Source of the DNA: Nitrosopumilus sp. | GTDB lineage: Archaea > Thermoproteota > Nitrososphaeria > Nitrososphaerales > Nitrosopumilaceae | Assembly: GCA_963662625.1 (NCBI GenBank) | Contig: OY759726.1 | Location: 1,408,001 to 1,472,000, forward strand | Direction: 5' to 3' | DNA length: 64,000 nt | In this document: positions 18,355 through 63,590 of the stretch, one piece after another | How the letters are laid out: each line of letters begins with the position of its first letter | Numbering within the stretch: the stretch's first letter is position 1 | Notes under the pieces: model-generated | The model's input: the letters and a program-made list of their open reading frames with translations, nothing else | Databases searched by the model: none | What the model was told of the DNA's origin: nothing | Program-made: the position numbers and the translations under genes

Positions 18355-19532
18355 GTGTCCCGAAAGAAGCCGGTTTCAGACGGTACCTGCCATAAGCGCG
18401 CCAGGAAGCAAACAAACAGACTGCCTGCCCCGGCAAGGAAGCGCATGAAGGCTTCCGGGGCGGGGAACCAGTGCACGGACGGCTGGGAGTACTTCGTGGG
18501 GACTGGCCTGCACAAGGAATTCATGCAGGTGGCGGTGATGGGTCGGGATGGGGAAGTGGTCTGGAACAGGCGGACAGGGCCCGGGCCGGAGACCGTCAGG
18601 AGGGAGTTCTCCGCGATGCCGGAGAACGCGAGGCACGTCCTGGAATCCTCGTCGGTGTGGTACGGGGCGTGCAGGCTGCTCAGGGACGAGATGGGGCTGG
18701 ACGTGGTGCTCTCCAACCCCCTGGCGACGCGGCCCGTCGCCCAGTCCAAGAAGACCGACAAGGCGGGCGCGGCGGTCCTGGCGGACCTGCTCCGGGGCGG
18801 GTACGTCGCGACGTGCCACGTCCCGGACGGGGAGACCGCGCGGGAGAGGCAGCTGGTGAGGTACCGGGCAAGGATGGTGCGGGAGAGGACGCGCTTCAGG
18901 AACCTGGCGCGCGGGATACTCCTGCAAAGGTGGGCCAGGATCCCCGGGACGCCGTTCTCGCGGGCGTGCGCGCGGGAGCTGCGCGGGCTGGGGGACCGGG
19001 GGACAGGCAAGCGCCCCAGGACCACCGGGTTCCCGGGCGGGGACATCGCCGACTGCGACGCCAGGATCAGGGATGCGGCGGGCGGGAACGGGAACGCCCG
19101 GCTCCCCACCACGATTCCCGGCGTGGGCAACGTCACCGCGCCGGGGCTGGCGCCGGGGACCGGGGACGTATCCAGGTTCGGCGACACGGGCCGCATGGCG
19201 TCTTACTTCGGGCTGGTCCCGTCGGTGAGGAACTCCGCCGGCACCGTGCACCACGGCCGCATGACCAAGGCGGGGGCGCCGCTGGTGCGGCACCTGCCGG
19301 CGGAGGCGGTGATAGCGCGCGTGACCGTGGCGGCCAGGAAGGGGCCGCCCACCCCGATCAGCGCGTTCTGCCACAGGATTGCAGGGAAGCGGGGGGATCC
19401 AAGGCAAGGGTGGCGGCCGCCGCCAAGATGCCGGGGATCGCGTTCTGGATGCTGAAGAAGGGGATTGACTTTGAGACGTGCCTGGTGGAGGGCAGGAAGG
19501 GCACGGCGCGCGGTGAGAGGCGCGGGGCATGA
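18355..19532 (+). pseudogene. IS110-family transposase, inactivated (catalytic Asp->Gly, frameshift near 19395)
   Basis: VGTGLHK (for VGIDLHK), VLESS, NP...KTDKAGA (for KTDKxDA), TIPGVG, SRF...SYFGLVPS..NSAG..HHGRMTK.G; C-terminal KARVAAAAKM in another frame after a G-run. Confidence 0.9.
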
Positions 19533-19593
19533 ACGCGGGCTGCATCATGGTTAGGGACTTGTGCGTTCGAACTATGGGATTCGATGCCCGACC

Positions 19594-20919
19594 CAGTAGT
19601 TGAAAATGTACCCCCGCGGGGCGCCGGCCGGCGTGTCTTGGCCCGATCCGTGAACGTTTTGGACAGAAAAACCAACGGGTCAGGCGCACCTGCCATCCAT
19701 CGTGTACCACCAAAACGAACCACGGGGGCACCGGCTTGAGGTGGCGGGCAAGGCGTTTAAAACGTTGCCACGGCTGCTTGGGAAGGCGGGCATCAGGTTC
19801 TCGGGCCGGCACGACGCCGCGTGCGGCACGGCCGGCCCCGTGCGCGTGCCGGTACCGGCGTGCGGGAACCGCTCGTGCGCGTCGGGCGCCGCCGGGGCGC
19901 TCGCCGTGCGCCACGGGCCCCGCCGCGTGCCGTCGTCGGCGTGGTTCCTGTCCAGGACAGGGGGGGCGTGCCGGGACCCCGGCACCATGGAGGGCAGGTG
20001 CAGGGACGCCCTGCGCTCCACGGTGCGCGGGGCCCGTCGCGCCGGGATCATCGTGGGGGGGGGGGCGTCCCACGCCGTGGCCCCGGCCTGCCGCCCGATG
20101 CCCAGGCACGGCAGGAACCCCGCCACCGGGGGGGAGCAGCTGGTGCGCGCGAGGCACGGGAACGGGACGCCGCGCTCCGAGGGGCACGCCGCCGCCAAGG
20201 TGGCGGGCGGGCCGGGGCCGGACCCGGCGCGCGGGCCCAAGAAGGGGAGCAGGGGGGCCGGAATCGTGCGCGGGCTGCCGCGTGACTGCGCTGGCGCGGG
20301 CGTCCGCCCGGGGCCGGTCCTGCCGGGCCGGGGCTTCTTCCCGGCAGGGGCCGTCGGGGAGCTGTCCGGGCCGGGCCACGGGCTCACCATGCCCGCGTCG
20401 CGGACGGCCGGCGCGAAGGGGGCCGTGGGGGAGCACGCGCGCGGGGAGAGGGCCGCGGCGTCCCCGCACGCCCGGCGCCCCGGGACGGGAGGGCCAGGGA
20501 GCCGTCCGCCCTGGCGATGGTCCCGAAGGAGGGCGGGGACGGGCGGGGCCCGGGGGACGCGCAGGAGGGGCACCTGGCGTACGCCACCAACGCCGGCGCC
20601 GGCAGGGCGGTCCGAGCCGCCGACGTCCCCGACGGGCACGGGAAGGGGCGGGGCACGGGGACGCTGAGAAGGCCGGGTCCAGGACCACCGGCACGAACCC
20701 CTCAGTCAGGACGTTCATGTTCTTCATGGCGCTGGTCATGCACGACCCGTGGATGATCTCGGCGGAATGGTCCGCCGGGCGGTGCGGGAGGCGCGGCACC
20801 GCCCCGGTCCGGCTGGCGATCATGCTGGAGTACGTGGCGAGGCTGGCCGCGTGCGCGGCGTATGGCGGCCGGGCCTGGCCCAACCAGGCGTCTGCCGGCT
20901 AGTACATTTTCAAGTACTG
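19594..20919 (+). mobile_element. ISH3-family (IS4 superfamily) insertion sequence, decayed
   Basis: TIRs CAGTAGTTGAAAATGTAC (19594-19611) / GTACATTTTCAAGTACTG (20902-20919), 17/18 match; remnants VLPGRGFF, AYATN, HGKGRGTGT, RTTGTNPSVR; possible 4-bp TSD GACC/GGCC. Confidence 0.82.
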
Positions 20920-21270
20920 GGCCCACCACGCCGGCACGTGTCAGGCCTGCCACCTCACTGGCAGCCACGGCGCCGGACGGCGGGAGGCTCTCGTGGAATG
21001 GCCTCCTTGCGCTTCAGCGCGGCGTTCTGCCCTGCCGTGGCTTGGGAGGGGCAGGATCAAAGCGTAGCGATCTAGATTTGTGGATTATTTGCGTAAATTT
21101 GCCTGATCACGTGCCGTCCGACGCTAGTCTACATATAAATATGAGGATTAATCATGTCTAACGAGACTAATGATTTGTAATTGCATTGGTGTACACGAGC
21201 GATCATGTGATCCATTGCGCGTCATGGCGTTTTGCACAAATTTTTATCCGCGTAGGGGCATGTGTCTGTC

Positions 21271-24200
21271 ATGTTGAAAATGACCCCCGGCATGGTTGTC
21301 GGCATAATGGTGGCCGTAGTTGCGGCATCCTCCGCGGTGATGGCCGCGCCGTACGCGGGCACGGCATACGCCGACCATGCCAGCCCTGTGTCGTTCACAT
21401 CCACCGTGAAGATCGACGGGATTGCCATAAGCGGCGGGGCCTTCAGCTACGACACCACCTTTGGCGTCAGCATAGCAAGCATCGGAGACCTCGACGGCGA
21501 CGGCACGGCCGACATCGCGGTGGGCGCGTCCGGCTCCTCGGCCTGTCGTACGTGCACTGGGATCGTGTACGTACTGTTCATGAACGCCGACGGCACCGTA
21601 AAGAGTTCGGCCACGATTGATGGCGATGCCCCCAACGCCCCGTCCTTGGATGTGGGAGACCGCTTCGGCGTCTCCGTGACGGGCCTAGGCGACCTCGACG
21701 GCGACGGCACGAACGACATCGCGGTGGGCGCGTCCGGTCACATACGCGGTGGTGTCGGCACAGGCGACACGTACATACTCTTCATGAACTCCGACGGAAC
21801 GGTAAAGCGCACTGCAACGATCGGCTCGCAGACGCCCAACGGTCCCGCGCTGGCCACAGACGACAAGTTCGGCTCGTCCGTGGTAAGCCTAGGCGACCTC
21901 GACGGCGACGGCACGACCGACATCGGCGTGGGCGCGCCCGGCCATTACCAAGACGACGTAAACACGGGCGACTTCTACGTAATCTTCCTCAACTCCGACG
22001 GAACGGTAAAGCGCACGACCGCGATCGACGGAACGACCCCCAACGTTCCTTCGTTGCCCGGAGACGGCAACTTTGGGCAGGCTGCGACAAGCCTCGGCGA
22101 CCTCGACGGCGACGGCACGACCGACATCGCGGTGGGCGCGCCGGGAGATGATGCCGACACCATAGGTACGGGAGACGTGTTCGTCATCTTCCTGAACCCA
22201 GACGGCACCGTAAAGGGGACGGCCAACCTCGACGGCGATACCCGAAACGTTCCCACGCTGGCGGGAGGCAGCCACTTTGGCAATGGCGTGGCGAACGCCG
22301 GCGACCTCGACGGCGACGGCACGACCGACATCGCGGTGGGCGCGCCGGGGATATTCACCCGGGCAGATCTCGCTGGTCAAGTTTACCTGTTGCTAATGAA
22401 CCCCGACGGCACCGTAAAGGGGACGACCACGATAGATGACGGCACGCCCAACGGCCCGTCCCTGGACGCGGGTGACCACTTTGGGTATTCCATTGCGGGA
22501 CTCGGCGACATCGACGGCGACGGCGCGGCGGAACTTGCCGTAGGCACGTACGGCGATGACACCGTCCACATAATATCCATAAGCGACGCGGCCTCTGCAG
22601 GCGACGGCCTGGTAAAGAACACGGGCGAGATTCAGGGCCGTACCATCGTACCCCCCTCTGCAGAAAATGACAACTTTGGGTGGGCCGTTGCAGGCATAGG
22701 AGACCTCGACGGCGACGGCACGACCGACATCGCGGTGGGAGGACCTGGCCGCTTCGTGGGAGGATCAGACCTGGGCGAGGTATATGTCCTGCTCATGAAT
22801 TCGGACGGCACCGTAAAGGCCAAGGCCAAGATCGACGGCGACGCGCCAAATGTCCCAGCACTGGAGATAGGCGACCGCTTTGGCTCGTCCGTCACGAGCC
22901 TCGGAGACCTCGACGGCGACGGCACGACCGACATCGCGGTGGGCGCGCCGGGGCATGTCTTGGGCAGTTCTAGCACGGGCTACGTATACGTCATGTTCCT
23001 AAACCCAGACGGCACCGTAAAGAACACTGTAAGGATAGACGGTAGCACGCCTAACGGCCCCGGGCTGGCGTCAGACGACCGCTTTGGCGAATCAGTCACG
23101 AGCCTCGGAGACCTCGACGGCGACGGCACGACCGACATCGCTGTGGGCGCGCCGGGCCATACCACCCGCGGCGCCAACACCGGCGACATGTACGTGCTGT
23201 TCATGAATTCGGACGGCACCGTAAAGGCCACGGTAAAGATCAACGCTGACACGCCAAACGGCCCAGCACTGGAACCCGGCGCACGCTTTGGCTGGTCCGT
23301 GGAAAACGTCGGCGACATCGACGGCGACGGCACGAACGACATCGCGGCAGGCGCGCCAGGGCATTCCGTCCGTGGAAACTCCACGGGCTCCATGTACGTC
23401 ATGTTCATGAACTATAACGGTACAGTAAAGAACACTGTCACGATAAACGGCGCGTCGGCCAACGTGCCGGCCTTGGCTGGTGGCGAACGCTTTGGGGCCG
23501 AAGTGGCAAGCATGGGCGACCTTGACCGCAACGGCGTCCCGGACATCGCGGTGGGCGCGCCGGGTCACATCATAGGCCCGCCGGGCAAGGAGTCGATCTA
23601 CGTGCTGTTGATGAACTCAGACGGCTCGGTAAAGCGCACAGGCATAGTTGACGGCAACACGCCAAACGGCCCAGTCCTGATTCCCGGCGAGCGCTTTGGC
23701 GCGGCCATTAGCAGCATAGGCGACCTCGACGGCGACGGCAACATGGATGTGGCGATGGGGGCACACGCATCGGGCTCCGTCTACATCGCGTACACGACGC
23801 CGACGTACGCATACGGCCATCCCGTGTCTGTCCTGTCCGTCGACACGTTTGACAGTGTCGCTGTAGGCGGCGGTGTTGTAGGAGTAAATAACACGTTTGG
23901 ATGGTCCATGGAAAGCATAGGCGACCTCGACGGCGACGGCGTCGGTGAGATTGCCGTGGGATCAACGGGTGCCCTAGCTTGTAACTGCACGGGCGAACTG
24001 TACATCATGATCATGAATTCAAACGGCACGATAAAGGGAACGCTTACCATCAACGGTGACACGCCCAACGTTCCGGCACTGGATATTGGCGGGAACTTTG
24101 GCGCGTCCATAGCAAGCCTCGGCGACATCGACGGCGACGGCGCGCTCGACATCGCGGTGGGCGCTCCCGGCAGCCTGCTAGGGGATCAGGGCACCGGCGA

Positions 24201-27200
24201 CCTGTTCATCCTGTTCATGAACGTTGACGGCACGGTCAAGCGCACGTCGACTATCAACACTTGGACTCCAAACGTCCCCACGCTGGCCACAGGGGCCCAC
24301 TTTGGCATGTCAGTGGAGAACATAGGCGACATCGATGGCGACGGCACGGTAGACATCGCGGTGGGTTCGACAGGCCGCATTACGAGCATGCTGGATACCG
24401 GCGACCTGTACATCCTTCTCCTCAAGCCCGACGGCACGGTGAAGAAGACGGTCAAGATCAACGATCAGACGCCCAACGTCCCCGAACTGCCAAAGGGATC
24501 CTACTTTGGATTTTCTATTTCAAGCTTGGGCGACCTTGACGGCGACGGCACGGTAGATCTTTCGGTGGGTGCGCCCAACAATCCCGCCGACCCCGCTGTC
24601 ACCGGCGACCTTTACATCCTGTTCATGAACTCGGACGTCACGGTAAGGGACACTGTCAAGATAAGCGCCGGGACGCCCAACGGCCCCGCGCTAACCGGAG
24701 GCGACTACTTTGGGATCTCTGTCCAAAACATAGGCGACATTGACGGCGACGGAACCACCGACATCATGGCTGGCGCGCCAGGCAGTGTGACCAGGGTGTC
24801 CGACACTGGAAGAATATACCTCATGCTCATGAACTCAGACGGCACCATAAAACGGACTAGCGTGATAGACGGGCAGACTCCCAACGGCCCTTCGCTGGAC
24901 GCCGGTGATCACTTTGGGTGGTCTATTGTAAGCCTCGGCGATACTGACGGCGACGGCGTGACCGACGTTATGGTCGGCACTGCCGGAGACGATTCCGTGC
25001 ACATCCTGTTCATGAATAACGGGGGAACCGTGAAGGGCTCCATCGAGATCCCATCACAGGCCGTCGTATCATTTAACCTGGTAAGCGACCAGTTTGGGTG
25101 GTCGACAAGCGCCATCGGCGACCTCGACGGCGACGGCGTCACCGACATCGCGTCGGGCGCGCCGGAACGTTCCATTGAGGGGGTCAACACGGGCAGCCTG
25201 TACATCCTGTTCATGAACGCCGACGGTACAATGAGGGAGACTGCGGAGATCAACGGCGGCAACACCTCCGGCCTCTCGCTGGTGTCCAACGACAGGTTTG
25301 GGGAGAGCGTGGAAGGACTGGGCGACCTCGACGGCGACGGCGTCACCGACATCGTGGTGGGCGCGCCCGGGAATGCCTTCAGTCCAGTCGACACGGGCAA
25401 CGCGTACGTATTATTCATGAACGCCAACGGCACGGTAAAGCAGGCGATCACCATCAACGGCAGCACCCCCAACGGCCCCGCACTCGATCCAAACAACAGG
25501 TTTGGAGAGTCTGTGGCCAACCTCGGCGACCTCGACGGCGACGGCACGATCGACATCGCCGTAGGCGGATCGGGAAATTTCCTGAGCAACACTGACACGG
25601 GAGACGTATTCATCCTGTTCATGAATTCCGACGCGACGGTGAACAAGACCATGGCGATCAACGACCAGACGCCGAACGGCCCGGCACTGACAGGGGGCGA
25701 CCGCTTTGGCAACGCCGTAGTAAACCTCGGCGACCTCGACGGCGACGGCGTCACCGACATCGCGGCGGGCGCGCCCGGGAATGCCTTTACCAGCGTGGAC
25801 ACGGGATCCGCGTACATCATGCTCATGAACTCAGACGGCACCGTAAAGGGTACCAGCGTGATCAACGGTCAGCTGCCCAACGGACCCGTACTCGGGGGCG
25901 GAAACCACTTTGGTGCCTCGCTGGCCAACCTAGGAGACCTTGACGGCAACGGCACCACCGACATTGCCGTGGGCGCCCCGAGCCGTGCAGCCGGCGGTGC
26001 GGGAATGGGCTACATGTACCTGCTGTTGACGAACCCCGACGGCACGATAAAGAGCACCACGGAGATCAGCGGTTCGAGCCCCAACATGCCCACGCTCGGG
26101 GATGTGGATCGTTTCGGCTCGTCAGTGGCCAGCATCGGCGACATCGACGGCAACGGCGACGTTGACTTGGCCATAGGCGCGCCCCTCTCGTCCAAGCTTT
26201 ACGTAACGTACCTGTCCACGTCCGAAAGCCGGTTCGTAACCACCTGGCAGACGACCATTCCGGGAGAGTCGATAAGCATCCCAGTAGGCGGCGCAACGGG
26301 CACCTACACCGTAGACTGGGGAGACGGGAACGCATCCATGCACAGCGGCGACGCACTCCATGCTTACAGCGCCCCCGGGACCTACACCGTGCAGATCTCA
26401 GGCGACTTTACGAGGATAAGCCTCGGTGACGATCCCAACAACGCCGCCAAGCTGCGCTCCATAGAGCAGTGGGGCACAGCCGGCTGGACATCAATGCAGT
26501 CTGCCTTCAAGGGGGCGGCCAACATGGCATACGGGGCGACCGACACACCGGACCTCTCCGGCGTCGCCGACACGTCATTCATGTTCAGCGGCGCGTCATC
26601 CTTCAACGGGGCCATCTCCTCCTGGGACGTCTCGTCGGTCACCAACATGTCCGGCATGTTCGCCGACGCCGCATCCTTCAACCAGTCCCTTGGCTCTTGG
26701 GACGTCTCGTCGGTCACCGACACGTCCGGCATGTTCAGCGGCGCGTCATCCTTCAACCGGTCCCTCGACTCCTGGGACGTCTCCTCCGTCACCTATGCGT
26801 CCGGCATGTTCTCCCGCGCCGCCTCCTTCAACGGCGACATATCCACCTGGGACGTATCCTCCGTAAACGACACGTCCGCGATGTTCTTCCGCGCCGCCTC
26901 CTTCAACGGCGACATATCCACCTGGGACGTCTCGTCGGTCGCCTACATGTCCGGCATGTTCTCAAACGCGTCCTCCTTCAACCAGCCGCTGGCCACCTGG
27001 GACACCTCCTCCGTCACCGACGCGTCCTCCATGTTCGCCGGCGCCGCCTCCTTCAACGGCGACATATCCACCTGGGACACCTCATCCGTCACCGACGCGT
27101 CCTCCATGTTCGCCGGCGCCGCCTCCTTCAACGGCGACATATCCACCTGGGACACCTCCTCCGTCACCGACGCGTCCTCCATGTTCGCCGGCGCCGCCTC

Positions 27201-29466
27201 CTTCAACCAGCCCATCGGCTCTTGGGACACCTCCTCCGTCACCGACATGAGTGGGATGTTCGCCGACGCCGCCTCCTTCAACCAGTCCCTCGGCTCATGG
27301 GACGTCTCCTCCGTAAACGACACGTCCGGCATGTTCTGGAACGCGCCCGCCTTCAACCAGCCGCTGGCCTCCTGGAACGTCTCGTCGGTCGCCTACATGT
27401 CCGGCATGTTCTCAAACGCGTCCTCCTTCAACCAGCCGCTGGCCACATGGGACACCTCCTCCGCCACCGACATGAGTGGGATGTTCTCCAGCGCGTCCTC
27501 CTTCGACCAGCCGCTGGCCTCCTGGGACGTCTCGTCGGTCGCCTACATGTCCGGCATGTTCTCAAACGCGTCCTCCTTCAACCAGCCGCTGGCCACCTGG
27601 GACACCTCCTCCCTCACCGACGCGTCCTCCATGTTCAGCGCCGCCACCGCCTTCAACGGCGACATATCCTCCTGGGACACCTCGTCGGTCACCGACATGT
27701 CCCTGATGTTCTCCGATGCCCCCGCCTTCAACCAGCCGCTGGCCACCTGGGACACCTCCTCCCTCACCGACGCGTCCTCCATGTTCAGCGGTGCGTTCTC
27801 CTTCAACCAGCCCCTGCCCACCTGGGACACCTCCTCCCTCACCGACGCGTCCGGCATGTTCGCCCTTGCCTACACCTTCAACGGCGACATATCCTCCTGG
27901 GACACCTCGTCGGTCACCGACATGTCCTGGATGTTCTTCAACGCGATCTCCTTCGACCGGCCCATCGGCTCCTGGGACACCTCGTCGGTCACCGACATGT
28001 CCCACATGTTCGATGACGCCTACGCCTTCAACGGCGACATCTCCTCCTGGGACACCTCGTCGGTCACCGGCATGTCCTGGATGTTCTTCGGCACGCTGCA
28101 GTTCAACCAGCCCATCGGCTCCTGGGACACCTCCTCCGTCACCGACATGTCGCTCATGTTCTCAAACGCGGACTCCTTCAACCAGCCCATCGGCTCCTGG
28201 GACGTCTCCGGCGTCACCGACATGTCGGGCATGTTCTCGGGCGCCCTCGCATTCAACCAGGACATCTCCTCCTGGGCCGTCTCGTCCCTTGACGACGCGT
28301 CCTTCATGTTCGCCGGCGCACCCGCCTTCAACCAGCCGCTGGATCCATGGGACGTCTCGAACGTGGCCGACATGTCCTACATGTTCTACCGCGCCATATC
28401 CTTCAACCAGCCCATCGGCTCCTGGGACGTCTCCGGCGTCACCGACATGACCGACATGTTACACTTTGCGTCGTCATTCGATCAGAACCTGGGCAACTGG
28501 TACGTGGTGCCGGCCGACACCAGGGTCAACGCCGGGACCACCCTGGTCACCACCCTCATGGCGCAGAATATGTTCCTTGACGGCCAGGGCCTGTCATACA
28601 GCGTGGCTCCGGGCGGCGACGGGGCCATGTTCGAGGTCTGCGGCAGCTACCTGAAGTCCACGTCGCCATCTTACTCCGAGCCCTCCTATGACGTCACGAT
28701 ACTGTCCGAAGGCGGGTTCGCGTCGCCAAATTCCAAGACCGTGACGGTAACGGTGGGAGGCGACGACGGCACCGGCACCGGCGGCGTCGACGCGCCGATC
28801 TCCCCGGCCGGCGGCGACACCGCCATGGTCACGGGAACCGTGTTCACGGACGCCAACGGCAACGGCATGCGCGACGCCGGCGAGCCCGGCGTCAGGGGCT
28901 ACACGATGTACGCCATAGACCTGACGAACCCGCAGGTGGTCATGGAGGCGGTCACGTGTTCCGACGGCACGTACTTCTTTGGCGGCCTCACGCCGTCCGA
29001 GACGACGCTGGTGCAGACCACGTACTTCCCGTTTGACAGCACCATAACCACCGGGCCGTTCTACGCGTACGTGCAGCCTACGGCGGACACGCCGGAGACG
29101 TTCGACGTCGGGTTCAGGCCCGTGGCGCCGTCGGAGGCCGTGACGCTCAACGTCACCGCGTACGCCGACTCCAACGCAAACGGCATGCGCGACGCGGGCG
29201 AGCCGACGATACCTGGCGTGACGGTAACCGTGTACACGTACACCACCAACGAGCTGGACTCCGTGACCACCGGCCGGGACGGCACGGCAAGCAAGGCCGA
29301 CATCACCCCGGCCGACTTCCTGGCCCAGGCGGTGATCCCGCAGGGCTACGCCGCGGCGACGTCGCCGGCAGACCCGTCATCGGGCATCGCGGGCGCGCTC
29401 ACCGTGACTGCCCCGGCGCCTGGCTCCAGCGTCTCCATGGTGGTGGGCCTGGTTCCGTCCAGCTAG
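21271..29466 (+). CDS. giant secreted surface protein: 24 FG-GAP repeats, PKD-like, 25 DUF285/BspA repeats, cadherin-like, SdrD-B-like domains
   Basis: Same architecture as 13760-18274; signal peptide ending AYA-D; repeats counted by hand from the translation. Confidence 0.9.
26623..28500 (+). repeat. intragenic 75-bp DUF285 tandem repeats (25 units)
   Basis: 25-aa unit W(D/N)(V/T)SSVTDMS.MF..A..FN(Q/G)...; TGG codons 75 bp apart (26623, 26698, ...). Confidence 0.92.
28825..29452 (+). repeat. 628-bp near-identical direct repeat of 17633-18260
   Basis: Colinear, same length, long exact runs (e.g. ggcgtcaggggctacacgatgtacgccatagacctgacgaacccgcaggtggtcatgga). Confidence 0.9.
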
Positions 29467-45345: not shown

Positions 45346-46618
45346 TAGTCTGTTGCACAACTCGGCACGATCCCCGGGCCGTGGCCAGGCCGTGCCGCTT
45401 GGAGTCCCTACGCCCCCGCCTCCCCCGCCCACCGGTTGTACTGGGCCACCCTGAGCCTTACCTCCTGCACGATGTTCTCCCACCTGCGCGAGTGCGCGTG
45501 GTCCCCGAACATCCTCTTGAACGCCGATATGATTATCTCGATCAGCCACCTCCTGCCGTACCCCTTCCTGGCCTTCCAGTACCGGACGTTCTCCTCCCTC
45601 TCCCTCGTGCCCACCCTGCCGGCGCGCGCCTCCGGGCCGCCCCCCGGCCGGTCCCGCACCGCCTCGCCCCACGCGCCGCCGGTGCCCTTGCCCCTGGCGG
45701 TGGACGCCACCTTGACCGGGATGATAGGCCCCACGCCCATGTCGCGGCACCTCCGCATGTTGTCCCGCGACGCGTACGCCCCGTCCGCGATCAGGCGCGC
45801 CCCGTGGGAGCCGGGCGGCTGGCCGCACTGCAGCGCGAGCGGCGCCACGCCGCTCGCGAGGAGGTTGGGCGGGGGCGAGCCCACGCGCGGCAGGGGATCC
45901 CCCGCCGCGGCTGCCTTCCCGCGGATCAGCGCCATGCGCCTGTCCTGCTTCCCCGCCGGCTTCCCGTCCGGCTTCCCGCCACGCGGCCCCGCCACGGTTC
46001 CCAGGAGCTCCTTCAGCATGGGGGAGTCGCCCGTCCTGTCGTCGGTCACCACCGCCGCGGGCATCTTCTTCGTGTCGGCGTCGGCCAGCAGGTGCAGCCT
46101 GGCGAACCCGCGCCTCGCCTCCCGCTTCTTCCGTACCCGCTCGCCCCGGTTGCACTGCTTCAGGCCCGTGGCGTCGGCCAGCAGGGTCATGGGCTGGCCG
46201 CCGCCGGAGACGCGGACGACTCCCCCGCCGATGTCCACGTCGAGGCGCGCCATCCTCCTGGCCAGCACCGAGTAGTGCGGCGCGCCGTGCCCCCCCAGCA
46301 TCCCCGCGAGGAGCCCGGACAGCTGCCTGTACCGGGCCCCGAGCGAGGTCCTCACCGCGGCGGCGGCCATGACCAGCGCCCCGGCGTACCTGAACGGGGC
46401 GCCCTCCTTGCCGGCGTTGGCCTCCCTCAGGTCGTCCTCCCAGCCGGGGTCATACGACACAGCCAGGCCCCTCCCGCGCCTGACGTATTTCTCGTTGTCG
46501 GTCGCAGCCAACGGGGACGGTGCGCGGCCGTGATCCAAGGCCTTTTCGGTTTGACATGGTTGGGCCGGGGGTTCAACTGTTTAGACTCGGCAATTTCTGG
46601 CAGTTGTGCAACAGACTA
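45346..46618 (-). mobile_element. IS5-family insertion sequence with degenerate transposase (ORF 45408-46538)
   Basis: Perfect 17-bp TIR TAGTCTGTTGCACAACT (45346-45362 / 46602-46618); 8-bp TSD GTTGCCCC (45338-45345, 46619-46626); DATG, ADGAY, GY.RRW.IE...S.FKR motifs. Confidence 0.92.
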
Positions 46619-50690: not shown

Positions 50691-50694
50691 ACGG

Positions 50695-54290: not shown

Positions 54291-54362
54291 GGGCGTGCTA
54301 CGCCGCCGCGGTATTTAGGTGAATGCGCAATACTGTAATATCGCGCGCGCCCACGGTGGCCA

Positions 54363-56409: not shown

Positions 56410-56431
56410 TAAATAGATCGGTCTGCCCCGC

Positions 56432-57826: not shown

Positions 57827-58306
57827 TCACCGGCCGGCGCCGCACTCCGCCCGGAGGGACCTGGCGGTGGCATAGTACGCCAGCAGCAGGACCGCGACGG
57901 CGGCGGCGCGGATCGGGATCTCGTGGTTGGAGAGGAACGCCGACGCCGCGGCCCCCGCCCCGCCGAACGTCGAGACCATCGCGAACCCCACCGGGCCGCA
58001 GCCGCACGCCCCCGAGGCGGAGCCCAGGACGGACCCCGCCACGCCCCCGCCGGCCCGCCGCCCCGATCCCCTGGCCGCCCTCATCCTGAAGACGTTCATC
58101 GGGATCACCAGCGCCGACAGGGCGCACAGGGCCAGGATCAGCGCGAGGCCGGCCTCCGAGCCCGGCGGCAGGCCGCCGGCCACGTACGGCTCGAGGAAGA
58201 CGTACCCGGAGGCGGCCAGCAGCCCGAGCGCCATCGCCGAGAAGATGGCCGAGGCCATCAGGGCGTACGCGGGCCTCGAGAACACGAGCCTTGCAGCGCC
58301 GGCCAT
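57827..58306 (-). CDS. membrane protein with CGC motif
   Basis: Four hydrophobic segments, GACGCGP; 1-bp gap after dsbA. Confidence 0.7.
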   Translation of the reverse strand: MAGAARLVFSRPAYALMASAIFSAMALGLLAASGYVFLEPYVAGGLPPGSEAGLALILALCALSALVIPMNVFRMRAARGSGRRAGGGVAGSVLGSASGACGCGPVGFAMVSTFGGAGAAASAFLSNHEIPIRAAAVAVLLLAYYATARSLRAECGAGR

Positions 58307-58307
58307 G

Positions 58308-58979
58308 CTACACCATGGAGTCGAGCACCATCTTGAAGGACGCGTAGGGCTGCGCGCCGACCAGGGTCTCAGCCCTGCCGTCCGGCCCGACTATGACGAA
58401 CGTGGGGGTGCCGGTGGCCCCGTGCCCGAGGGCCTGGTCCGTGTTGTACCTGACGCGGTCCGCGTGCTCGCCCGATCCCATGCAGCCGTCGAAGGCGCCC
58501 ATGTCCAGGCCGATGTCGAACGCGAACGCCCTGAGCCGCTCCCCGCCGGCCCAGCCGTTGTCGATCCGCGACTCCTGGGAGGAGTACAGCAGGTCGTGGT
58601 ACTCCCAGTACGCCCCCTGGTCGCCGGCGCAGTGGGACGCCTGCGCCGCGGGGCCCGAGTCCCTCCCGAGGAACGCCATGTCGACGAACACCAGGCTCGC
58701 CTTCCCCGGCTCGATGTACTCGCGCGTTATGGCCGGCTTCGTGTTGTGGAACCAGTTGTAGCACTGGTGGCACTGGTAGTCGCCGAACTCTATTATGGTG
58801 ACCGGCGCCGAGGGGTCGCCCAGGACGGGCGAGCCCATGGCGGTGGACACGCCGCCCGGCACCTCGCCCGCCTGGGGGCCGGGGCCGCCGGGGGGCGGCT
58901 GGTACGCGGCCGAGGCGGCTGCCGCCACCGCCACTACGGCGGCGACGGCCGCCACGACGGCGGCGCCCTTCTTGTTCAT
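58308..58979 (-). CDS. DsbA-family thioredoxin
   Basis: N-terminal anchor, G...APVTIIEFGDYQCHQC, GTPTF, GAQPY. Confidence 0.92.
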   Translation of the reverse strand: MNKKGAAVVAAVAAVVAVAAAASAAYQPPPGGPGPQAGEVPGGVSTAMGSPVLGDPSAPVTIIEFGDYQCHQCYNWFHNTKPAITREYIEPGKASLVFVDMAFLGRDSGPAAQASHCAGDQGAYWEYHDLLYSSQESRIDNGWAGGERLRAFAFDIGLDMGAFDGCMGSGEHADRVRYNTDQALGHGATGTPTFVIVGPDGRAETLVGAQPYASFKMVLDSMV

Positions 58980-59010
58980 GGCTGGTATTCCAGGGACTGG
59001 ACTAAAAAAC

Positions 59011-59205
59011 CTATTCGGGGCGGCCCCGGCGCCCCCTGAACAGGCCGAGCAGCCTGTCTATCGCGGTGTCTATCGGGCAGGCCTCGCAGGGGGCCGCGGG
59101 GGAATGGCCGCGCAGGTGCCTGTCAAACTCGCCCCTGGAGCCGAACACCCGGTCGCACGCCTGGCAGTAGACCTTGGTGACGGGGCTCTTGGGGGGCTTT
59201 TCCAC
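59011..59205 (-). CDS. small C2H2-type zinc-finger protein
   Basis: C..C...F......H...H plus CEACP. Confidence 0.65.
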   Translation of the reverse strand: MEKPPKSPVTKVYCQACDRVFGSRGEFDRHLRGHSPAAPCEACPIDTAIDRLLGLFRGRRGRPE

Positions 59206-59281
59206 AATTGGCAGTGCCGCCCAGTGCTTATAAAGAGTCCTGTCCGCGGATCCCCGGGGCGATCACGCGCGGGGCCGGCGG

Positions 59282-59650
59282 CTACAGGTAGTGCATCTTC
59301 TGGTGGTTCTGGTAGTCCACCTCGTACCTCGTGACGTACCCGCAGTGCGTGCACGAGAACATGTCTGACACCGGCTTGGCCTCCCTCTCGATGGCCTTCC
59401 CGGACAGCGACCTGATGGACACCTTGCCGCCGCCCGACACCACCGCGAAGTTGCCGCCCTCCCCGATCGAGTCGAGGAACTCCTTGATCGCCGACACCAC
59501 CACGGCGGCGTCGATCCCCTCGTCGTCGTCGAAGGACGACAGGGTGAACTCGTGGTTCTTCAGGGTGGGGATCGCGGCCACCTGGTCCGACACGTAGACC
59601 ACCAGCTCGTTCCTTATGGGCTCCACGTCCCTGCAGTCGACCCTGAGCAT
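59282..59650 (-). CDS. C2H2-type zinc-finger protein
   Basis: C-terminal FSCTHCG........NHQKMH; start ATG 59650. Confidence 0.75.
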   Translation of the reverse strand: MLRVDCRDVEPIRNELVVYVSDQVAAIPTLKNHEFTLSSFDDDEGIDAAVVVSAIKEFLDSIGEGGNFAVVSGGGKVSIRSLSGKAIEREAKPVSDMFSCTHCGYVTRYEVDYQNHQKMHYL

Positions 59651-59757
59651 ACCGTGGTGGGCGCGCCGACGGTATTTTAGTATAACACCGGCGCGCCCCC
59701 GCGGCGCGGGGAGGGGCCCGAAAATGATTATTAGCGGCGTGGCGCCCAACGTGGTGC

Positions 59758-60144
59758 ATGGGGGACTCTGAGACGTTCGGGGTGGAGAGCGGCCACGGCA
59801 GGGAGGTTGTCGAGTGGATGAACTCCCAGTCGGCCGAGAGGGGACTGAAACTGGAGGCGCGGCTGTACGGACACACGGTGTCCACGTCCAACTTCGGCGA
59901 CTTTGAGATGTTCTCGTGGATCGGCGACGCGCAGGCGGCCAGGAAGCTGGTGATCAGGGCCAGCAAGAGGTTCAGGGTAAGGGTGATAGAGGGCGGGTAC
60001 AAGCCAAAGGAGAGGGTGTTCCGCGTGAAGAAGTTCGACTACGGCAAGGTGCGCATGGGCGACAAGACCGTGGGGCAGATCGAGTTCGCCGCGTCCAGGA
60101 TCGGGGGCGGCAAGTGGGAGGTCAGCGATGAGGAGCGGCACTGA
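59758..60144 (+). CDS. conserved hypothetical protein
   Basis: 128-aa ORF, typical codon use, overlaps downstream dehydrogenase. Confidence 0.7.
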   Translation: MGDSETFGVESGHGREVVEWMNSQSAERGLKLEARLYGHTVSTSNFGDFEMFSWIGDAQAARKLVIRASKRFRVRVIEGGYKPKERVFRVKKFDYGKVRMGDKTVGQIEFAASRIGGGKWEVSDEERH

Positions 60145-61033
60145 GCCGGGCGGGCCGCCCGCCAGGGTGGGGATCGTCGGCGCCGGGATGCTGGGCAGCG
60201 CGGTGGGCGCGCGCCTGCTGGACTCGGGCGTCGGGCTCGCGGTGTACAACAGGACCGCGGAAAAGGCGGAGGCGCTGGGATCCAGGGGCGCCCTGGTGGC
60301 CGGCTCCCCACGGGAGGTGGCCGAGGCGTCAGACATCGTGCTGACCGTGGTGAGGGACGCCGGCGCGGTAAGCGAGGTCTCCTTCGGGAGGGGCGGGATC
60401 GTGGAGGGGCTCCACGACGGCCTGGCAGTCGCCGACATGAGCACCGTGAACCCGTTCGAGTCGAGGGGGATCTCTGCCAGGTTCGCGCGGCACGGGATCA
60501 GGAAGCTGGACGCCCCCGTGATGGGCGGCCCCAAGGCCGCCGCCGCCGGGGACCTGGCCGTGATGTGCTCCGGGGACAGGGAGGAGTTCGAGAGGTTCGA
60601 GCCGCTCTTCAGGACGATCGGCAGGGACGTGTTCTACCTCGGCGGGGACGGCGTGGCGCACTCCGTCAAGCTGGCCATGAACCTACAGATAGCGATGCTG
60701 GCGCTGTCGCTGTCGGAGGGGATCGTACTGGCGGAGAGGTCCGGGGTGGACCCGGAGGCGTTCCTGGAGGTGCTCAACTCCACGTACTTTAGCACCGGGA
60801 TGAGCCGGAACAAGGCCCACGGGATGGTCCGCCGGAGCCACGATCCCACGTTCACGCTGGAGAACCTCAAGAAGGACGTGTCGACGATGACGGAGACGGC
60901 CAGGGAGCTCGGGATCAGGCTCCCGATGACGGAGAGGGCCGAGGGCGTCTACGGGGACGCCGCGGACGGCGGGCTCGGCGGCGTGGACTATACCGGGATC
61001 ATCGAGCACGTGAGGAGGCTCAACGGGTACTGA
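60128..61033 (+). CDS. beta-hydroxyacid dehydrogenase (3-hydroxyisobutyrate/tartronate semialdehyde reductase family)
   Basis: GIVGAGMLG, YNRT, DMST, LDAPVMGG, VKLAMN, KKD. Confidence 0.9.
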   Translation: MRSGTEPGGPPARVGIVGAGMLGSAVGARLLDSGVGLAVYNRTAEKAEALGSRGALVAGSPREVAEASDIVLTVVRDAGAVSEVSFGRGGIVEGLHDGLAVADMSTVNPFESRGISARFARHGIRKLDAPVMGGPKAAAAGDLAVMCSGDREEFERFEPLFRTIGRDVFYLGGDGVAHSVKLAMNLQIAMLALSLSEGIVLAERSGVDPEAFLEVLNSTYFSTGMSRNKAHGMVRRSHDPTFTLENLKKDVSTMTETARELGIRLPMTERAEGVYGDAADGGLGGVDYTGIIEHVRRLNGY

Positions 61034-61195
61034 GGCGCGCCGGGGGCCCGGCGTCCCGCGGCGCGGGGGGCGCCGTGCAGGCCTTTCGCCGCGTCCTGGG
61101 GCCGCGTCCCGGGGCCGCAGGCCGCGGCGGCTTGGGGATCAGACCCCAAATAATAAATAAAACCAAGCCACAACCTTAATGGTATAGTGGAATAA

Positions 61196-62140
61196 TTGAG
61201 CGACCCCGATAAATCTAAAGACGCCGAAGACATCCTGTCCGAATTTAAATCAAAAAAATCCGAGCCCTCCCGGGAATCCGCCGAGGATCCCCCCGAGCCC
61301 GCGCCGTACGGTTCGCCTTCAGACCAGTCACCCGAGCCCGCACCGTACGGATCACCCTCAGACGATCCCCCCGAGCCCGCGCCGTACGGATCAACCTCAG
61401 ACCAGCCGCAAGAACCCGAGGGCGCCGCGCCCGACGATGCCGACGCGCGGCCCGAACCCCCGGCAGACGATCCCCCCGAGCCCGCGCCGTACGGATCGAC
61501 CTCAGACCAGCCGCAAGAACCCGAGGGCGCCGCGCCCGACGATGCCGACGCGCGGCCCGAACCCCCGGCAGACGATCCCCCCGAGCCCGCGCCGTACGGA
61601 TCGACCTCAGACCAGCCGCAAGAACCCGAGGGCGCCGCGCCCGACGATGCCGACGCGCGGCCCGAACCCCCGGCAGACGATCCCCCCGAGCCCGCGCCGT
61701 ACGGATCGACCTCAGACCAGCCGCAAGAACCCGAGGGCGCCGCGCCCGACAATGCCGAACCGCCAGCCGGGGAGGAGCACGAGCCGGTACCGGAAACCGC
61801 CGAGCCAGCGCCGGAGTCGCCCGGCGCGCCCGCGGAAGACGAGGCAAAACCCGCCGAGGATCGCGACGTCGTGTTCGTCGGGATCAAGCCGCTCATGACG
61901 TACGTCACCGCCACCCTGACGCAGCTCTCGACAAGGGAAACCGTCACCATCAAGGCCAGGGGCAGGAAGATAACCCAGGCAGTCGACATATCCCAGATGA
62001 TCGTAAAACGCATGAACACCGTGGGCTATTCCGTCGGCGACATCAGGATCTCGTCCGTGTCCCTCACCTCCAAGGACGGCAAGCAGCGCAACGTCTCCAC
62101 CATAGAGATCGACATAATCAACAGCGGCAACCTCGCGTGA
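61196..62140 (+). CDS. Alba DNA/RNA-binding protein with long acidic Pro-rich repetitive N-terminal extension
   Basis: C-terminal VFVGIKPLMTYV...IKARG..I..AVD...RNVSTIEI Alba domain. Confidence 0.9.
   Translation: MSDPDKSKDAEDILSEFKSKKSEPSRESAEDPPEPAPYGSPSDQSPEPAPYGSPSDDPPEPAPYGSTSDQPQEPEGAAPDDADARPEPPADDPPEPAPYGSTSDQPQEPEGAAPDDADARPEPPADDPPEPAPYGSTSDQPQEPEGAAPDDADARPEPPADDPPEPAPYGSTSDQPQEPEGAAPDNAEPPAGEEHEPVPETAEPAPESPGAPAEDEAKPAEDRDVVFVGIKPLMTYVTATLTQLSTRETVTIKARGRKITQAVDISQMIVKRMNTVGYSVGDIRISSVSLTSKDGKQRNVSTIEIDIINSGNLA
61361..61756 (+). repeat. 105-bp (35-aa) tandem repeat, about 3.75 copies
   Basis: Units at 61361, 61466, 61571, 61676 encoding DDPPEPAPYGSTSDQPQEPEGAAPDDADARPEPPA. Confidence 0.93.
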
Positions 62141-62260
62141 CCGCGGAGGACGGCCGCCCCGCTCCCGCGTCCTGCGCGACCCGAACCATTCCAGGCAGAT
62201 CCGCGCGCGCCGTGCGTGCCGGCGCCCGCGGCCCGCGCTGCGGCAGGGCCCGCCTGCTCG

Positions 62261-62905
62261 CTAGCCCGCCCCGGGAAGAAACGCGGCCAGCTTTGCAAAG
62301 TGCCCCGCGTACGCCTCCCTCGTCAGCCGCCGCCTCCCGCCGCCCCTTATCACGAAGGCCGGGTGCCACAGGGGCAGGACCGAGAACCTCCCGCCCTTCC
62401 TCACCCTCCCGAAGCCCTTCCCGGAGAAACCCGCGCCCAGCAGCGCCCTGGACGCCGTCAGGCCCAGGGTGACCACCAGCCTGGGCCTGATGATCTCCAG
62501 CTCCTTTTCCAGAAAGCCCGCGCAGTTGGCGATCTCGGCCCCGGTCGGCGGCCTGTTCGTCCCGTCCGCGCCCATGGGGCTGCAGCGCACCACGTTGGTG
62601 ACGTAGACCCGCCGCAGCGCGGGGCGCGTCGACTCCGGCCCGGACAGGCTCAGCCCCAGGCCGCGCAGCAACCCCTGCAGGAACACGCCGCTCCTGTCCC
62701 CCGTGAACGGCACGCCGGTCCGGTCGGCCCCAAGCCTCCCCGGGGCCTCCCCCACGATGAGGATCTCCGCGGCGGGATCGCCATAGCCTGCAACCGCCCG
62801 GCTCCTGGACTCCACGAGCCTCTCGCAGAGCGTGCACGAGCGGACCCTCCTCGCCAGGGCGTCCCTCCGCCTGGCCGGCGCCGCGTCCATGTCCTGTTCA
62901 GGCAT
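62261..62905 (-). CDS. uracil-DNA glycosylase (Fe-S, family 4/5)
   Basis: C..C..L, VGEAPG, TGVPFTGDRSG, TNVVRC.P..NRPP...EI.NC, LWHPA; start ATG 62905. Confidence 0.9.
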   Translation of the reverse strand: MPEQDMDAAPARRRDALARRVRSCTLCERLVESRSRAVAGYGDPAAEILIVGEAPGRLGADRTGVPFTGDRSGVFLQGLLRGLGLSLSGPESTRPALRRVYVTNVVRCSPMGADGTNRPPTGAEIANCAGFLEKELEIIRPRLVVTLGLTASRALLGAGFSGKGFGRVRKGGRFSVLPLWHPAFVIRGGGRRRLTREAYAGHFAKLAAFLPGAG

Positions 62906-63004
62906 GCGCGCCGGCACAAAAAAACCCTGCCTTCCGCGCGGCGGGCCGCCGCCGGCCGGACCCTTGGAGCCCCCAGCCGCCGTATGTCGGGCACGGGAGG
63001 AGGC

Positions 63005-63590
63005 ATGCCGGGACTCGGCGAAAAGATCGAGCCCAACAATGCGGGCAAGTCCATCCTGCCGCTGCTCGGTGCCAAGAACCGGGAACCCGTCCCGGGCCCG
63101 CCGCACCCCCAAAAAGAGGCGCTCCTACTGCCCGGCCTCTTTTCCTGACCCGACGTGGAAACTGACCACGTGCCATGCCTCTCGGGGCCACACGGCGACA
63201 TCGCGGCCCACGGGGAAGGGCAGCTTTCCACGTATGGCCTAGCGAACGCCAAGGCTGGCGAGACGAGTCTGGCCGGTGGCGGAGCAGGGGCGCGCCAGAA
63301 ACCGGTGGGCGGCGCGCCAAAAGGGCGCGTCAAGAAGATCGAGTAGTTCCAGGATCTCCTGGACGACCTGGCCAAAGGCGGGCTCCCGGCATTCACTTAT
63401 TTTGCATGCCCGCCCGCCGGGGGCCTGGAAAAGGAGCCGGCGGATCACAAGGGCGTGCTCCCAAAACGAAGGCGGCTCGCGGCCTCCCCCGGCAGGAAGG
63501 ACAAGCCGAGCGCGCAAAAGGCGGCACGGGCAGCCGGCCAAGGCCCGGAAGATTTCACACGCGGATTGGAACGGCGGGCCGACGAAGGCG
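63005..63590 (+). pseudogene. decayed antitoxin-like gene (YwgA/Panacea-like N-terminus + UPF0175-like HTH C-terminus)
   Basis: One frame with in-frame stops at 63146 and 63344: ILPLLG....PVPG...PQKEALLL...VPCLSGPHGD and LAASPGRKDKPSAQKAARAAGQGPEDF (cf. LAxSLYxxxKISxxKAAxIAGxxLEDF); family assignment by eye. Confidence 0.6.

Follow-up and report, generated by a model that had tools for sequence, protein, structure and literature searches.

Dense transitions that run in one direction on both strands, inactivate transposons, shift base composition and spare functional single-copy genes are known from fungi as repeat-induced point mutation (RIP). A similar picture was met in the archaeon Nitrosopumilus sp. 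(genome G000), in a window of 64,000 nt (G000:C1:1408001-1472000) and in the remainder of its genome. The chemistry is the opposite one: RIP changes C:G to T:A, mostly at CpA, whereas here A:T>G:C changes dominate (1777 versus 192) and the unit is a TNNA doublet. Furthermore, any duplicated DNA is a target of RIP before meiosis, whereas non-IS duplicates are untouched here, for instance a 7.4-kb pair of 97% identity. Judged by the direction of change and by 13 non-IS duplicate pairs at the level of the mirror control, RIP was rejected. A RIP-like process in prokaryotes was not found in a full-text literature search.

ADAR hyper-editing and engineered TadA editors share the outcome A>G, which is read as A>G together with T>C. 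The homodimeric state of TadA would go well with doublets of two-fold symmetry. ADAR prefers its 5' neighbour in the order U/A>C>G and edits dsRNA, whereas the IS move as DNA and A is depleted at position -1 of the changed A (0.08 versus 0.16); with G at 0.41 and C at 0.38 in this position, and a coupled T at -3, ADAR-like editing was discarded on its neighbour preference. To our knowledge no natural deaminase acts on adenine in dsDNA, and the full-text search did not find one either.

Context-dependent T>C changes and newly created CCGG-type sites are also expected from Vsr or other T:G-mismatch glycosylase repair and from GC-biased gene conversion; VSP repair reshapes oligonucleotide frequencies in E. 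coli. However, repair of the Vsr type needs an existing mismatch and alone cannot alter the two strands of a TNNA together when it is perfectly paired. Deficiency in MMR, NucS or EndoV yields a transition-rich spectrum in which A:T>G:C is prominent, as here, but in such mutators G:C>A:T rises too, the whole genome is affected and doublets are lacking, unlike the signature in the IS. A diversity-generating retroelement was rejected as well: A>C plus T>G amount to 75 against 1777 AT>GC, so the adenine changes are A>G and not A>N; T>C occurs just as often, and every copy of the complete elements is affected.

Decay of the IS copies

Altogether 33 non-identical IS copies (IS110, ISH3-like, IS5, IS481-like) were aligned to masters, a master being the intact or near-identical copy in the same genome that served as reference for every decayed copy. 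Triplets below give AT>GC transitions/GC>AT transitions/transversions. The IS5 master F3 reached 173.2 bits with NCBIfam IS5_2 (cut-off 140). For F2a and F4 the ISH3 model was best with 97.1 and 93.2 bits (cut-off 225) and for F5 the IS481 model with 164.1 bits (cut-off 224); as these scores stay under the cut-offs, the families are called ISH3-like and IS481-like. F2b is an ISH3-like sub-family.

Decay in at least four unrelated IS families (IS110, two ISH3-like, IS5, IS481-like) is almost only by A:T>G:C transitions, in agreement with the original prediction. Pooled over the 33 copies the spectrum is 1777/192/317 (717/147/252 as distinct events), with 891 A>G and 886 T>C changes; that both occur side by side had been anticipated from the coding strand. 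Per site, AT>GC amounts to 0.138 per A/T site and GC>AT to 0.0072 per G/C site. The cleanest lineages are the IS110 copies B/C, D and F (44/0/0, 89/1/1 and 199/1/4), over which GC climbs from 0.632 to 0.772. The same pipeline gave 134/161/82 for IS copies of the relative G008 (57.6% GC). Within G000, functional divergence between F2a and F2b yielded 41/40/76 and the 7.4-kb non-IS duplicate 48/39/110. Changes private to single IS110 copies are ordinary (58/47/86, 1 doublet); among derived states common to at least two IS110 copies, 202 of 222 are AT>GC transitions.

The expected rarity of stop codons was borne out: internal stops are absent in 7/7 PF01548 matches and in all 29 PF01609 matches listed for G000, and 1–4 stops occur in several of the IS matches from the low-GC congeners G001 and G002. 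Since the decay makes no stop codons, dead transposases keep long open frames, and annotation will list them as intact genes. Two findings had been named as speaking against the prediction, namely active homologues that already carry the altered residues and G:C>A:T changes at least as frequent as A:T>G:C. Neither was observed: intact homologues and in-genome masters hold the consensus residues, and therefore the prediction survives its own test; the polarised per-site ratio is 19.

Table 1. Elements of the window and intact IS110 master (window positions; C1 denotes positions in the genome)
Element	Position	Strand	Remarks
Dead IS110-family element	18355–19532	+	open frame 18355–19455; last ~50 codons in frame ending 19532
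Dead ISH3-like element	19592–20925	+	copy of master C1:580347-581718
Lightly decayed IS5-family element	45346–46618	-	copy of master C1:44852-46148
Intact uracil-DNA glycosylase (UDG) superfamily gene	62264–63112	-	PF03167, 106.6 bits
IS110 master	C1:1194284-1195699		intact, 242.9 bits NF033542

Three decayed elements lie in the window (Table 1). The frame of the IS110 relic (GC 0.705; TCGA 0, ACGT 8) is free of stops and has weak Pfam scores (57 and 55 bits). With the NCBIfam IS110 model (NF033542, cut-off 140) it reaches 143.7 bits; PF01548 and PF02371 are also matched by members of this family. The relic was aligned with ten homologues at 50–56% identity and, at 28%, with the genome's intact IS110 copy. 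Where the homologues read GIDLHK, KTDKVDA and SEIGDISRF, it has GTGLHK (T50 G51, 18502–18507), KTDKAGA (A137 G138, 18763–18768) and PGTGDVSRF. The predicted changes I-D to T-G, V-D to A-G and SEIGD to PGTGD were thus all recovered. With its motifs of acidic catalytic residues (named DEDD) broken, and with a C-terminal frameshift that places the final ~50 residues in ORF 18471–19532, the relic fails as an active family member. The proposed loss of the start codon by ATG>ACG at 18475 found no support: an intact Met at ~18445 aligns with the MKA(A/S)G start of the homologues.

The ISH3-like relic differs from its master by 101/6/11, including 10 exact TNNA>CNNG doublets, and has a GC of 0.762 (0.694 in the master), with TCGA 0 and ACGT 5. 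In this alignment the changes read from the sequence, VLLDRGFF>VLPGRGFF (CTG GAC>CCG GGC) and YNLW>HDPW, match letter for letter; the reading of a former YRKRWGIET is only partly right, because a 13-bp deletion lies within that stretch. The IS5 relic, whose master has its transposase ORF on the minus strand, shows the AT>GC decay that had been suggested for it, with 20/2/1 (A>G and T>C 10 each). It has 7 exact doublets and a tandem-repeat deletion of 24 bp. An antitoxin pseudogene claimed near 63,000–63,590 could not be confirmed; among seven ORFs scanned there, the UDG gene gave the sole Pfam match. This is a repair gene within the span and is mentioned as context only.

The TNNA>CNNG doublet and its distribution

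The unit event is a concerted, two-fold symmetric change of 5'-TNNA-3' to 5'-CNNG-3' at both outer pairs of a 4-bp site, which is why T>C occurs together with A>G on one strand. Counted over sites x copies as both/one/none outer bases converted, TNNA gives 306/89/890 and the mirror control ANNT 81/250/854 (Fisher odds ratio 140), where shared descent of the copies inflates both the copy-by-site counts and the p-value of the Fisher test. Copies of at least 95% identity give 51/10/575, and their offset profile peaks at +3 (51) versus +2 (6) and +4 (7), 2 and 4 being minor doublet spacings. The inner bases matter in the order TCGA > TCCA/TGGA > rest (26/32 sites converted for TCGA, 18/30 for TCCA, 16/41 for TGGA, 4/25 for TGCA). 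With copy age the observed/expected ratio of TCGA declines from 1.38 over 1.11 and 0.34 to 0.15, that of ACGT stays flat (1.04–1.10) and that of CCGG rises from 1.00 to 1.40. Independent copies were converted repeatedly at identical sites.

Young copies come from F2b, with seven copies 99.5–100% identical. In three of these the only transitions are 1, 2 and 3 paired T>C/A>G changes; the spacing of these six pairs is exactly +3 in five and 4 in one. The young doublets are isolated, although relics with the same doublets differ at neighbouring positions within 5–12 bp. Our reading is that recurrent mutation, not conversion, lies behind them. Copy E gained one doublet after its split from copy I; this and the young F2b copies are the only cases that suggest in-situ gain. 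The private changes are as expected if hot spots are hit recurrently or if changes are inherited along a lineage that is still being mobilised.

The doublet signature is limited to IS DNA and ends at the borders of the elements. Inside decayed copies TCGA occurs 13 times versus 58 for ACGT (GC 0.741), and in 20 unique flanks, 30–430 bp outside decayed IS, 34 times versus 32 (GC 0.602). Relative to ACGT, TCGA is not depleted in unique non-coding DNA (0.79 versus 0.85 for ACGT; GC 0.589), nor at synonymous positions (T|CGA:C|CGG 0.061 versus A|CGT:G|CGC 0.068), and synonymous TCCA is likewise undepleted (0.044 versus 0.049). Doublets in the 13 non-IS duplicate pairs are at mirror level (e.g. 1 versus 2 among 197 differences), and the IS of G008, G024, G002, G001 and G028 show no excess (doublet/mirror 2/0, 0/0, 12/15, 2/4 and 0/0). 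Genome-wide, observed/expected for TCGA is 1.27–1.49, with about 5 TCGA per kb. Alternatively, purifying selection that acts on the flanks and between genes could produce this confinement. No large non-IS pseudogene whose ancestry is known turned up. A gene fragment outside the IS, its changes polarised by three paralogues, gave 10/0/1 with doublets at 0/4 affected TNNA sites, and other small dead fragments 37/4/25, 44/5/72 and 8/2/3; the AT>GC excess in three small non-IS dead fragments indicates that a general bias exists. Unique, phase-flat, high-GC segments show a mild TCGA depletion (0.79 versus 1.15 for ACGT). Thus, from the two options originally offered, targeting of mobile DNA is favoured for the doublet component, TCGA loss being confined to IS, and a genome-wide GC-biased spectrum is kept as a probable weaker background (GC3 0.90–0.97; fragment 10/0/1).

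Candidate mechanism and its rivals

We give an even chance to the following explanation: a dimer-like, TCGA-preferring A:T>G:C converter of the host, acting on dsDNA, hits mobile DNA on top of an AT>GC-biased background. Such an activity would act with two-fold symmetry and turn the two adenines, which lie on opposite strands across the minor groove, into G-like bases; in the simplest chemistry both would be deaminated to hypoxanthine. Both changes would have to be fixed before replication, because they would otherwise segregate to different daughter cells; removal of the T opposite hypoxanthine, a step that we purely infer, could achieve this. Mobile DNA would be reached preferentially, either in situ or as a transposition intermediate, and the process would work as an anti-transposon hypermutation defence with a chemistry opposite to RIP/APOBEC. 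A weaker, context-free AT>GC background probably also acts on dead DNA and fits the 63% genome GC. A tentative, rather doubtful extension is 'restriction by editing', in which a dimeric, TCGA-preferring natural dsDNA adenine base editor kills transposons without cutting.

Searches for an enzyme covered CDA/TadA-fold and ADA-fold deaminase families and yielded no candidate. PF00383 has one match in G000, and all relatives have this deaminase as well, a motif scan returned that single gene plus spurious matches only, and PF00962 matches were 0/21; the suggested check for adenine deaminases thus revealed no additional gene from an adenine or cytidine deaminase family in G000. A TaqI-like TCGA restriction-modification system was rejected, since the TaqI_C domain (PF12950) was not found in G000 and TCGA is not avoided genome-wide; matches to Eco57I-type methyltransferases are weak only. 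In the EndoV/NucS search, PF04493 was present in 2/12 family relatives, with none in G000, G001, G002 and G005, and PF01939 in 1/12. Neither NucS nor EndoV was found in G000, and because most low-GC relatives, G005 and G002 among them, lack them too, their absence does not explain the signature; a mutator due to this loss was dropped, as the loss is not specific to the high-GC lineage.

Instead of a targeted activity, the ordinary spectrum of this genome might be overwhelmingly A:T>G:C, TNNA doublets included, and be visible only where selection is absent, the IS relics simply being the sole abundant dead DNA. We regard this as a serious rival, though a less likely one. It would account for a GC of 63.4% in G000 compared with 33–44% in sampled stretches of G001, G002, G003, G005, G009 and G012 (57.6% in one further relative, G008), for the housekeeping-orthologue GC3 of 0.90–0.97, for the AT>GC skew of all four non-IS dead fragments, for doublets gained singly by young copies and for the mild TCGA depletion in phase-flat segments. 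It is at odds with the undepleted synonymous TCGA and TCCA, the near parity of TCGA and ACGT in unique non-coding DNA, the normal flanks around heavily decayed IS, the lack of doublets in the polarised fragment and the ordinary spectrum of changes private to one IS copy. Moreover, the per-site bias of the clean lineages (transitions 44:0, 89:1, 199:1) exceeds what a GC3 of ~0.93 implies.

GC-biased very-short-patch conversion among IS copies, in which heteroduplex T:G becomes C:G and so spreads W>S and erases S>W, would explain why the shared IS110 states are mostly AT>GC and the private ones ordinary, why sharing is non-nested (B, D and E hold conflicting combinations) and why only multi-copy DNA is affected. 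Yet conversion neither creates doublets nor explains the strict 5'-T..A-3' orientation at +3 that the mirror control brings out, and the isolated young doublets lack adjacent donor variants, so tracts shorter than ~5–12 bp would be needed. Together with masters that remain unconverted and multi-copy non-IS families without the pattern, this makes conversion very improbable. Least credible of all is an artefact, either base-calling or polishing errors at modified adenines (e.g. m6A in TCGA) or repeat mis-assembly. Long reads are known to fail at palindromic methylation motifs through symmetric A>G/T>C errors, and the genome is a single contig, but the copies form a graded series of 3%, 6%, 9% and 15% divergence with indels and transversions, and TCGA is retained genome-wide. 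Unique window parts recur unchanged in contigs from two further runs (for instance a 6,989-bp contig of X2 with 0 differences), and low-depth X3 contigs match the window IS5 relic with 3–4 differences, versus 12 for a high-depth master-type contig.

For the concerted TNNA>CNNG double substitution we know of no described counterpart, and the full-text literature search did not find one. The signature looks like the trace of an undescribed DNA-editing activity, and a clean A:T>G:C change on dsDNA would be of direct interest for base editing. The IS decay in G000 runs counter to the rule that prokaryotic mutation is AT-biased even in GC-rich symbionts (PMC2936535, PMC3267392). A further bearing is on the unexplained high GC of Thaumarchaeota that live in association with sponges (PMC7848895). 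If mobile DNA is targeted, this would be a new kind of archaeal transposon control, and if the reading as an editing defence is true, prokaryotes would have their first known genome defence of the hypermutation type.

Decay of insertion sequences in the window and in the genome

The IS110 relic was aligned to ten homologues (50–56% identity) and to the intact IS110 copy of the same genome (28%). At near-invariant positions of this alignment it has T-G for I-D, A-G for V-D and PGTGD for SEIGD, as the original prediction had proposed from consensus motifs, and further changes follow the same line (M>A, Y>C/H, F>L, L>P, E>G and alike); the suggested ATG>ACG change of its start codon finds no support in the homologues. 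For the ISH3-like and the IS5 relic the genome holds intact or near-identical copies, here called masters, and against its master the ISH3-like relic shows exactly the expected VLLDRGFF>VLPGRGFF and YNLW>HDPW. A Pfam search of the region assigned to an antitoxin pseudogene did not find one. In the three relics TCGA occurs 0, 0 and 2 times, versus 8, 5 and 3 times for ACGT.

Location of the features discussed (window positions, or positions in the host contig, C1)
Feature	Position	Strand	Remarks
IS110 relic	18355-19532		frame 18355-19455 open yet degenerate; C-terminus frameshifted
ISH3-like relic	19592-20925		
IS5 relic	45346-46618		
Indel among IS5-family copies	45960-45984 region		24 bp, two units of the 12-bp tandem repeat GGCTTCCCGTCC
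Giant gene	13760-18274	+	1504 aa
Giant gene	21262-29466	+	2734 aa
Repeat-containing ORF	61196-62140	+	four near-perfect tandem repeats of a ~37-aa acidic, proline-rich unit
UDG superfamily gene (PF03167)	62264-63112	-	106.6 bits
UDG superfamily gene (PF03167)	C1:1352303-1353157		113.9 bits
Intact IS110 copy	C1:1194284-1195699		
Mutated IS110 copy	C1:719424-720839	-	44 changes
Mutated IS110 copy, identical	C1:728464-729879	+	44 changes
Surface-protein gene fragment	C1:243881-244504		FG-GAP/DUF285; polarised by three functional paralogues
Gene of 193-aa protein	C1:565814-566377		GC3 just 0.69

The two giant genes flank the IS relics; both encode FG-GAP and DUF285 repeats with SdrD_B-like C-terminal domains and belong to a multi-copy surface-protein family with members elsewhere in this genome.

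A scan of the genome for PF01548 yielded an intact IS110 copy and degraded copies, the proteins of which carry the changes I>T, D>G, L>P, E>G, M>T, C>R and Y>C. In a nucleotide alignment of 11 copies (designated by letters), copies B and C show 44 differences, 22 A>G and 22 T>C and nothing else. The same two changes make up 89 of 91 differences in copy D and 199 of 210 in copy F (199/1/4 by BLAST; triplets give AT>GC transitions, GC>AT transitions and transversions), and the GC content of the copies climbs from 0.632 to 0.772. Whole-genome self-BLAST revealed this one-directional change in further repeat families as well, and a symmetric spectrum with many transversions in functional repeats. 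Every copy that reached 600 bp and 84% identity was assigned to the master it matched best. After removal of the masters and of exact duplicates, and with no filter on the spectrum, the resulting 33 copies, from IS110, two ISH3-like, IS5 and IS481-like families, hold 1777 AT>GC transitions (A>G 891, T>C 886), 192 GC>AT transitions and 317 transversions (717/147/252 as distinct events), with per-site rates of 0.138 for AT>GC versus 0.0072 for GC>AT. The IS481-like master may be slightly decayed itself, since its copies are richer in GC>AT changes. The reverse polarity, with masters derived by G:C>A:T, was rejected: it is the copies with low GC that are intact and that represent the majority state among near-identical ones. 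The predicted A:T>G:C decay is confirmed and becomes sharpened to a new, well-defined signature.

The two identical mutated IS110 copies are inverted, about 7.6 kb apart, and each adjoins an IS5 copy, a layout resembling a composite transposon. In the IS110 master (L080) nt 8-555, including a non-coding leader of ~190 nt, are the part best conserved (66–74%) in the IS110 elements of four other genomes (G001, G002, G008, G024); this 5' part could be a candidate site of the element's guide (bridge) RNA.

A symmetric doublet and its probable recurrence

By far the commonest arrangement is a T>C with an A>G 3 nt downstream (TNNA>CNNG, the doublet). In ten lightly decayed copies that were displayed, the majority of changes is paired in this way, for instance TCGA>CCGG, TCCA>CCCG, TGGA>CGGG, TGCA>CGCG, TAGA>CAGG and TATA>CATG. 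Counted as sites times copies, TNNA had both, one or none of its members converted in 306, 89 and 890 cases, versus 81, 250 and 854 for the mirror motif ANNT. Among copies with 95% identity or more, the TNNA counts are 51, 10 and 575, where one would expect approximately 5 doubles under independence (per-site hit rate 0.088); the minor spacings 2 and 4 gave 6 and 7 doubles. Where the partner is G:C already (TNNG/CNNA), an A/T site takes hits at about twice the rate of other A/T sites. By inner bases, 26 of 32 TCGA, 18 of 30 TCCA, 16 of 41 TGGA and 4 of 25 TGCA sites were converted. With rising age of the IS copies the observed/expected ratio of TCGA falls from 1.38 over 1.11 and 0.34 to 0.15, while ACGT stays at 1.04–1.10 and CCGG goes up from 1.00 to 1.40. 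Because 5'-TNNA-3' is its own reverse complement, the same event is obtained on either strand, and A>G therefore equals T>C. In B-DNA, adenines of the two strands that are offset by 3 bp in the 3' direction face each other across the minor groove, and this is the arrangement of the two TNNA adenines.

Among eight IS110 copies, the changes confined to a single copy, a class which is biased against hot spots, follow an ordinary spectrum (58/47/86, 1 doublet), whereas 202 of 222 derived states common to at least two copies are AT>GC transitions and their sharing is non-nested. Hence, either the same sites were hit recurrently, or dead copies went on being mobilised and hit, or both. Accumulation after a split varies between lineages: F gained 24/1/4 and H 14/11/10 since their separation, with one doublet in total between them, and copy E since its split from I gained 5 AT>GC transitions (one doublet) and 4 transversions. 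Gene conversion could likewise spread derived states; however, young copies of family F2b carry lone doublets, and relics sharing those doublets differ at adjacent positions, which argues for recurrence and against conversion.

Distribution of the signature

The host genome is archaeal, a single contig of 1,858,698 bp with 63.4% GC, and an archaeal rRNA operon is located inside the window. Its closest 16S sequences (98% identity) are those of G005, from another genus of the family, and, over a partial gene, the congener G002. Sampled stretches of relatives have 33.5% (G005), 37% (G003), 35% (G009), 37% (G012), 39–44% (congeners G001 and G002), 38.6% (G024) and 57.6% GC (G008). In the host, GC3 of housekeeping orthologues is 0.90–0.97, and a crude gene call gave GC1/2/3 of 0.60/0.47/0.85 with a non-coding GC of ~0.60. 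One study remarks on the raised GC of sponge-associated Thaumarchaeota, without explanation so far (PMC7848895); for the AT-bias rule of mutation, PMC2936535 and PMC3267392 are cited. The contigs of three runs containing the window showed no difference from it in unique parts.

The signature was not seen outside the IS copies of this genome. In 20 unique flanks (8 kb, 30–430 bp outside decayed copies) TCGA and ACGT occur 34 and 32 times at a GC of 0.602, versus 13 and 58 times at 0.741 inside the copies. Unique non-coding DNA has 0.79 for TCGA versus 0.85 for ACGT and 1.51 for CCGG versus 1.48 for GCGC; the genome-wide ratios, 0.99–1.00 for TNNA/ANNT and 1.09–1.14 for CNNG/GNNC, carry no information on this point. 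In the synonymous frame of 721 unique genes T|CGA:C|CGG is 0.061 versus 0.068 for A|CGT:G|CGC, and the TCCA values are 0.044 versus 0.049, whereas old IS copies have TCGA:CCGG of 3:272 versus ACGT:GCGC of 22:203. At third codon positions T3..A3 versus C3..G3 gave a Mantel-Haenszel odds ratio of 3.47 (mirror 1.43), but a similar asymmetry exists in low-GC relatives (e.g. 2.42 versus 0.70 in G012, 1.07 versus 0.54 in G005), so that these values do not discriminate. Thirteen non-IS duplicate pairs showed no excess of doublets over the mirror (e.g. 1 versus 2 among the 197 differences of a 7.4-kb pair). Private IS changes in G008 are 134/161/82 with 2 doublets, and pairwise IS comparisons, in which pairs inside one genome are non-independent, gave doublets/mirror of 0/0 (G024), 12/15 (G002), 2/4 (G001), 0/0 (G028) and 2/0 (G008).

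Non-IS dead DNA is scarce. By-eye counts for the surface-protein gene fragment gave 10/0/1 over ~170 columns, with four TNNA sites changed in a single member and zero doublets; two further fragments have 37/4/25 and 44/5/72, and a duplicate located downstream of aspartate kinase 8/2/3. From this excess, dead DNA in general seems to be subject to an AT>GC bias that is independent of context, and doublets were seen solely in IS DNA. The original prediction, which had proposed either a genome-wide GC-biased process or one targeting mobile DNA, is supported in part: the doublets fit better with a process that targets mobile DNA, and a weaker genome-wide bias probably exists in the background.

Three zero-TCGA, non-repeat stretches scanned with Pfam proved to contain identifiable genes that seem functional (UDG, an fn3 protein, H+-PPase), and were rejected as relics. 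Ten ORFs of phase-flat, high-GC unique segments had zero Pfam matches, and for one such segment no DNA match was found in four relatives. ORFs across rejoined IS flanks, as a test for interrupted genes, are too noisy at this GC. The 193-aa protein is 99.5% identical to L017 of G002 (40% GC), whereas neighbouring orthologues share 45–83%; together with its GC3, this looks like a recent gene transfer between the two genomes.

Possible mechanism and consequences

The pure A:T>G:C change, the two-fold symmetry and the TCGA preference point to an enzyme with sequence preference that would act on double-stranded DNA, instead of polymerase error or chemical damage. The simplest chemistry would be deamination of adenine on both strands. 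Lesions on opposite strands part at replication and give singles, so for doublets fixation would have to precede replication; the T opposite hypoxanthine might be removed, or both bases of one strand replaced in a short patch. IS DNA might be singled out as a transposition intermediate, by missing protective modification or by some other mark.

No gene for the signature emerged from the host genome among EndoV, NucS, CDA-fold, ADA-fold, HhH-GPD, Eco57I-type methyltransferases and TaqI_C. HhH-GPD has one match here, likewise one each in G005 and G002, and three or four in several relatives. A 1799-codon open frame with HAE...PCxxC was ruled out as deaminase, being a composite frame around an ATPase-like gene. 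Full-text literature searches brought up no relevant work on RIP-like processes in prokaryotes, on natural adenine deaminases of dsDNA or on IS elements that decay by AT>GC changes.

The decayed IS genes retain long open frames, and among the matches listed for this genome none of 7 to PF01548 and none of 29 to PF01609 has an internal stop. Automatic annotation will therefore take dead transposases for intact ones.
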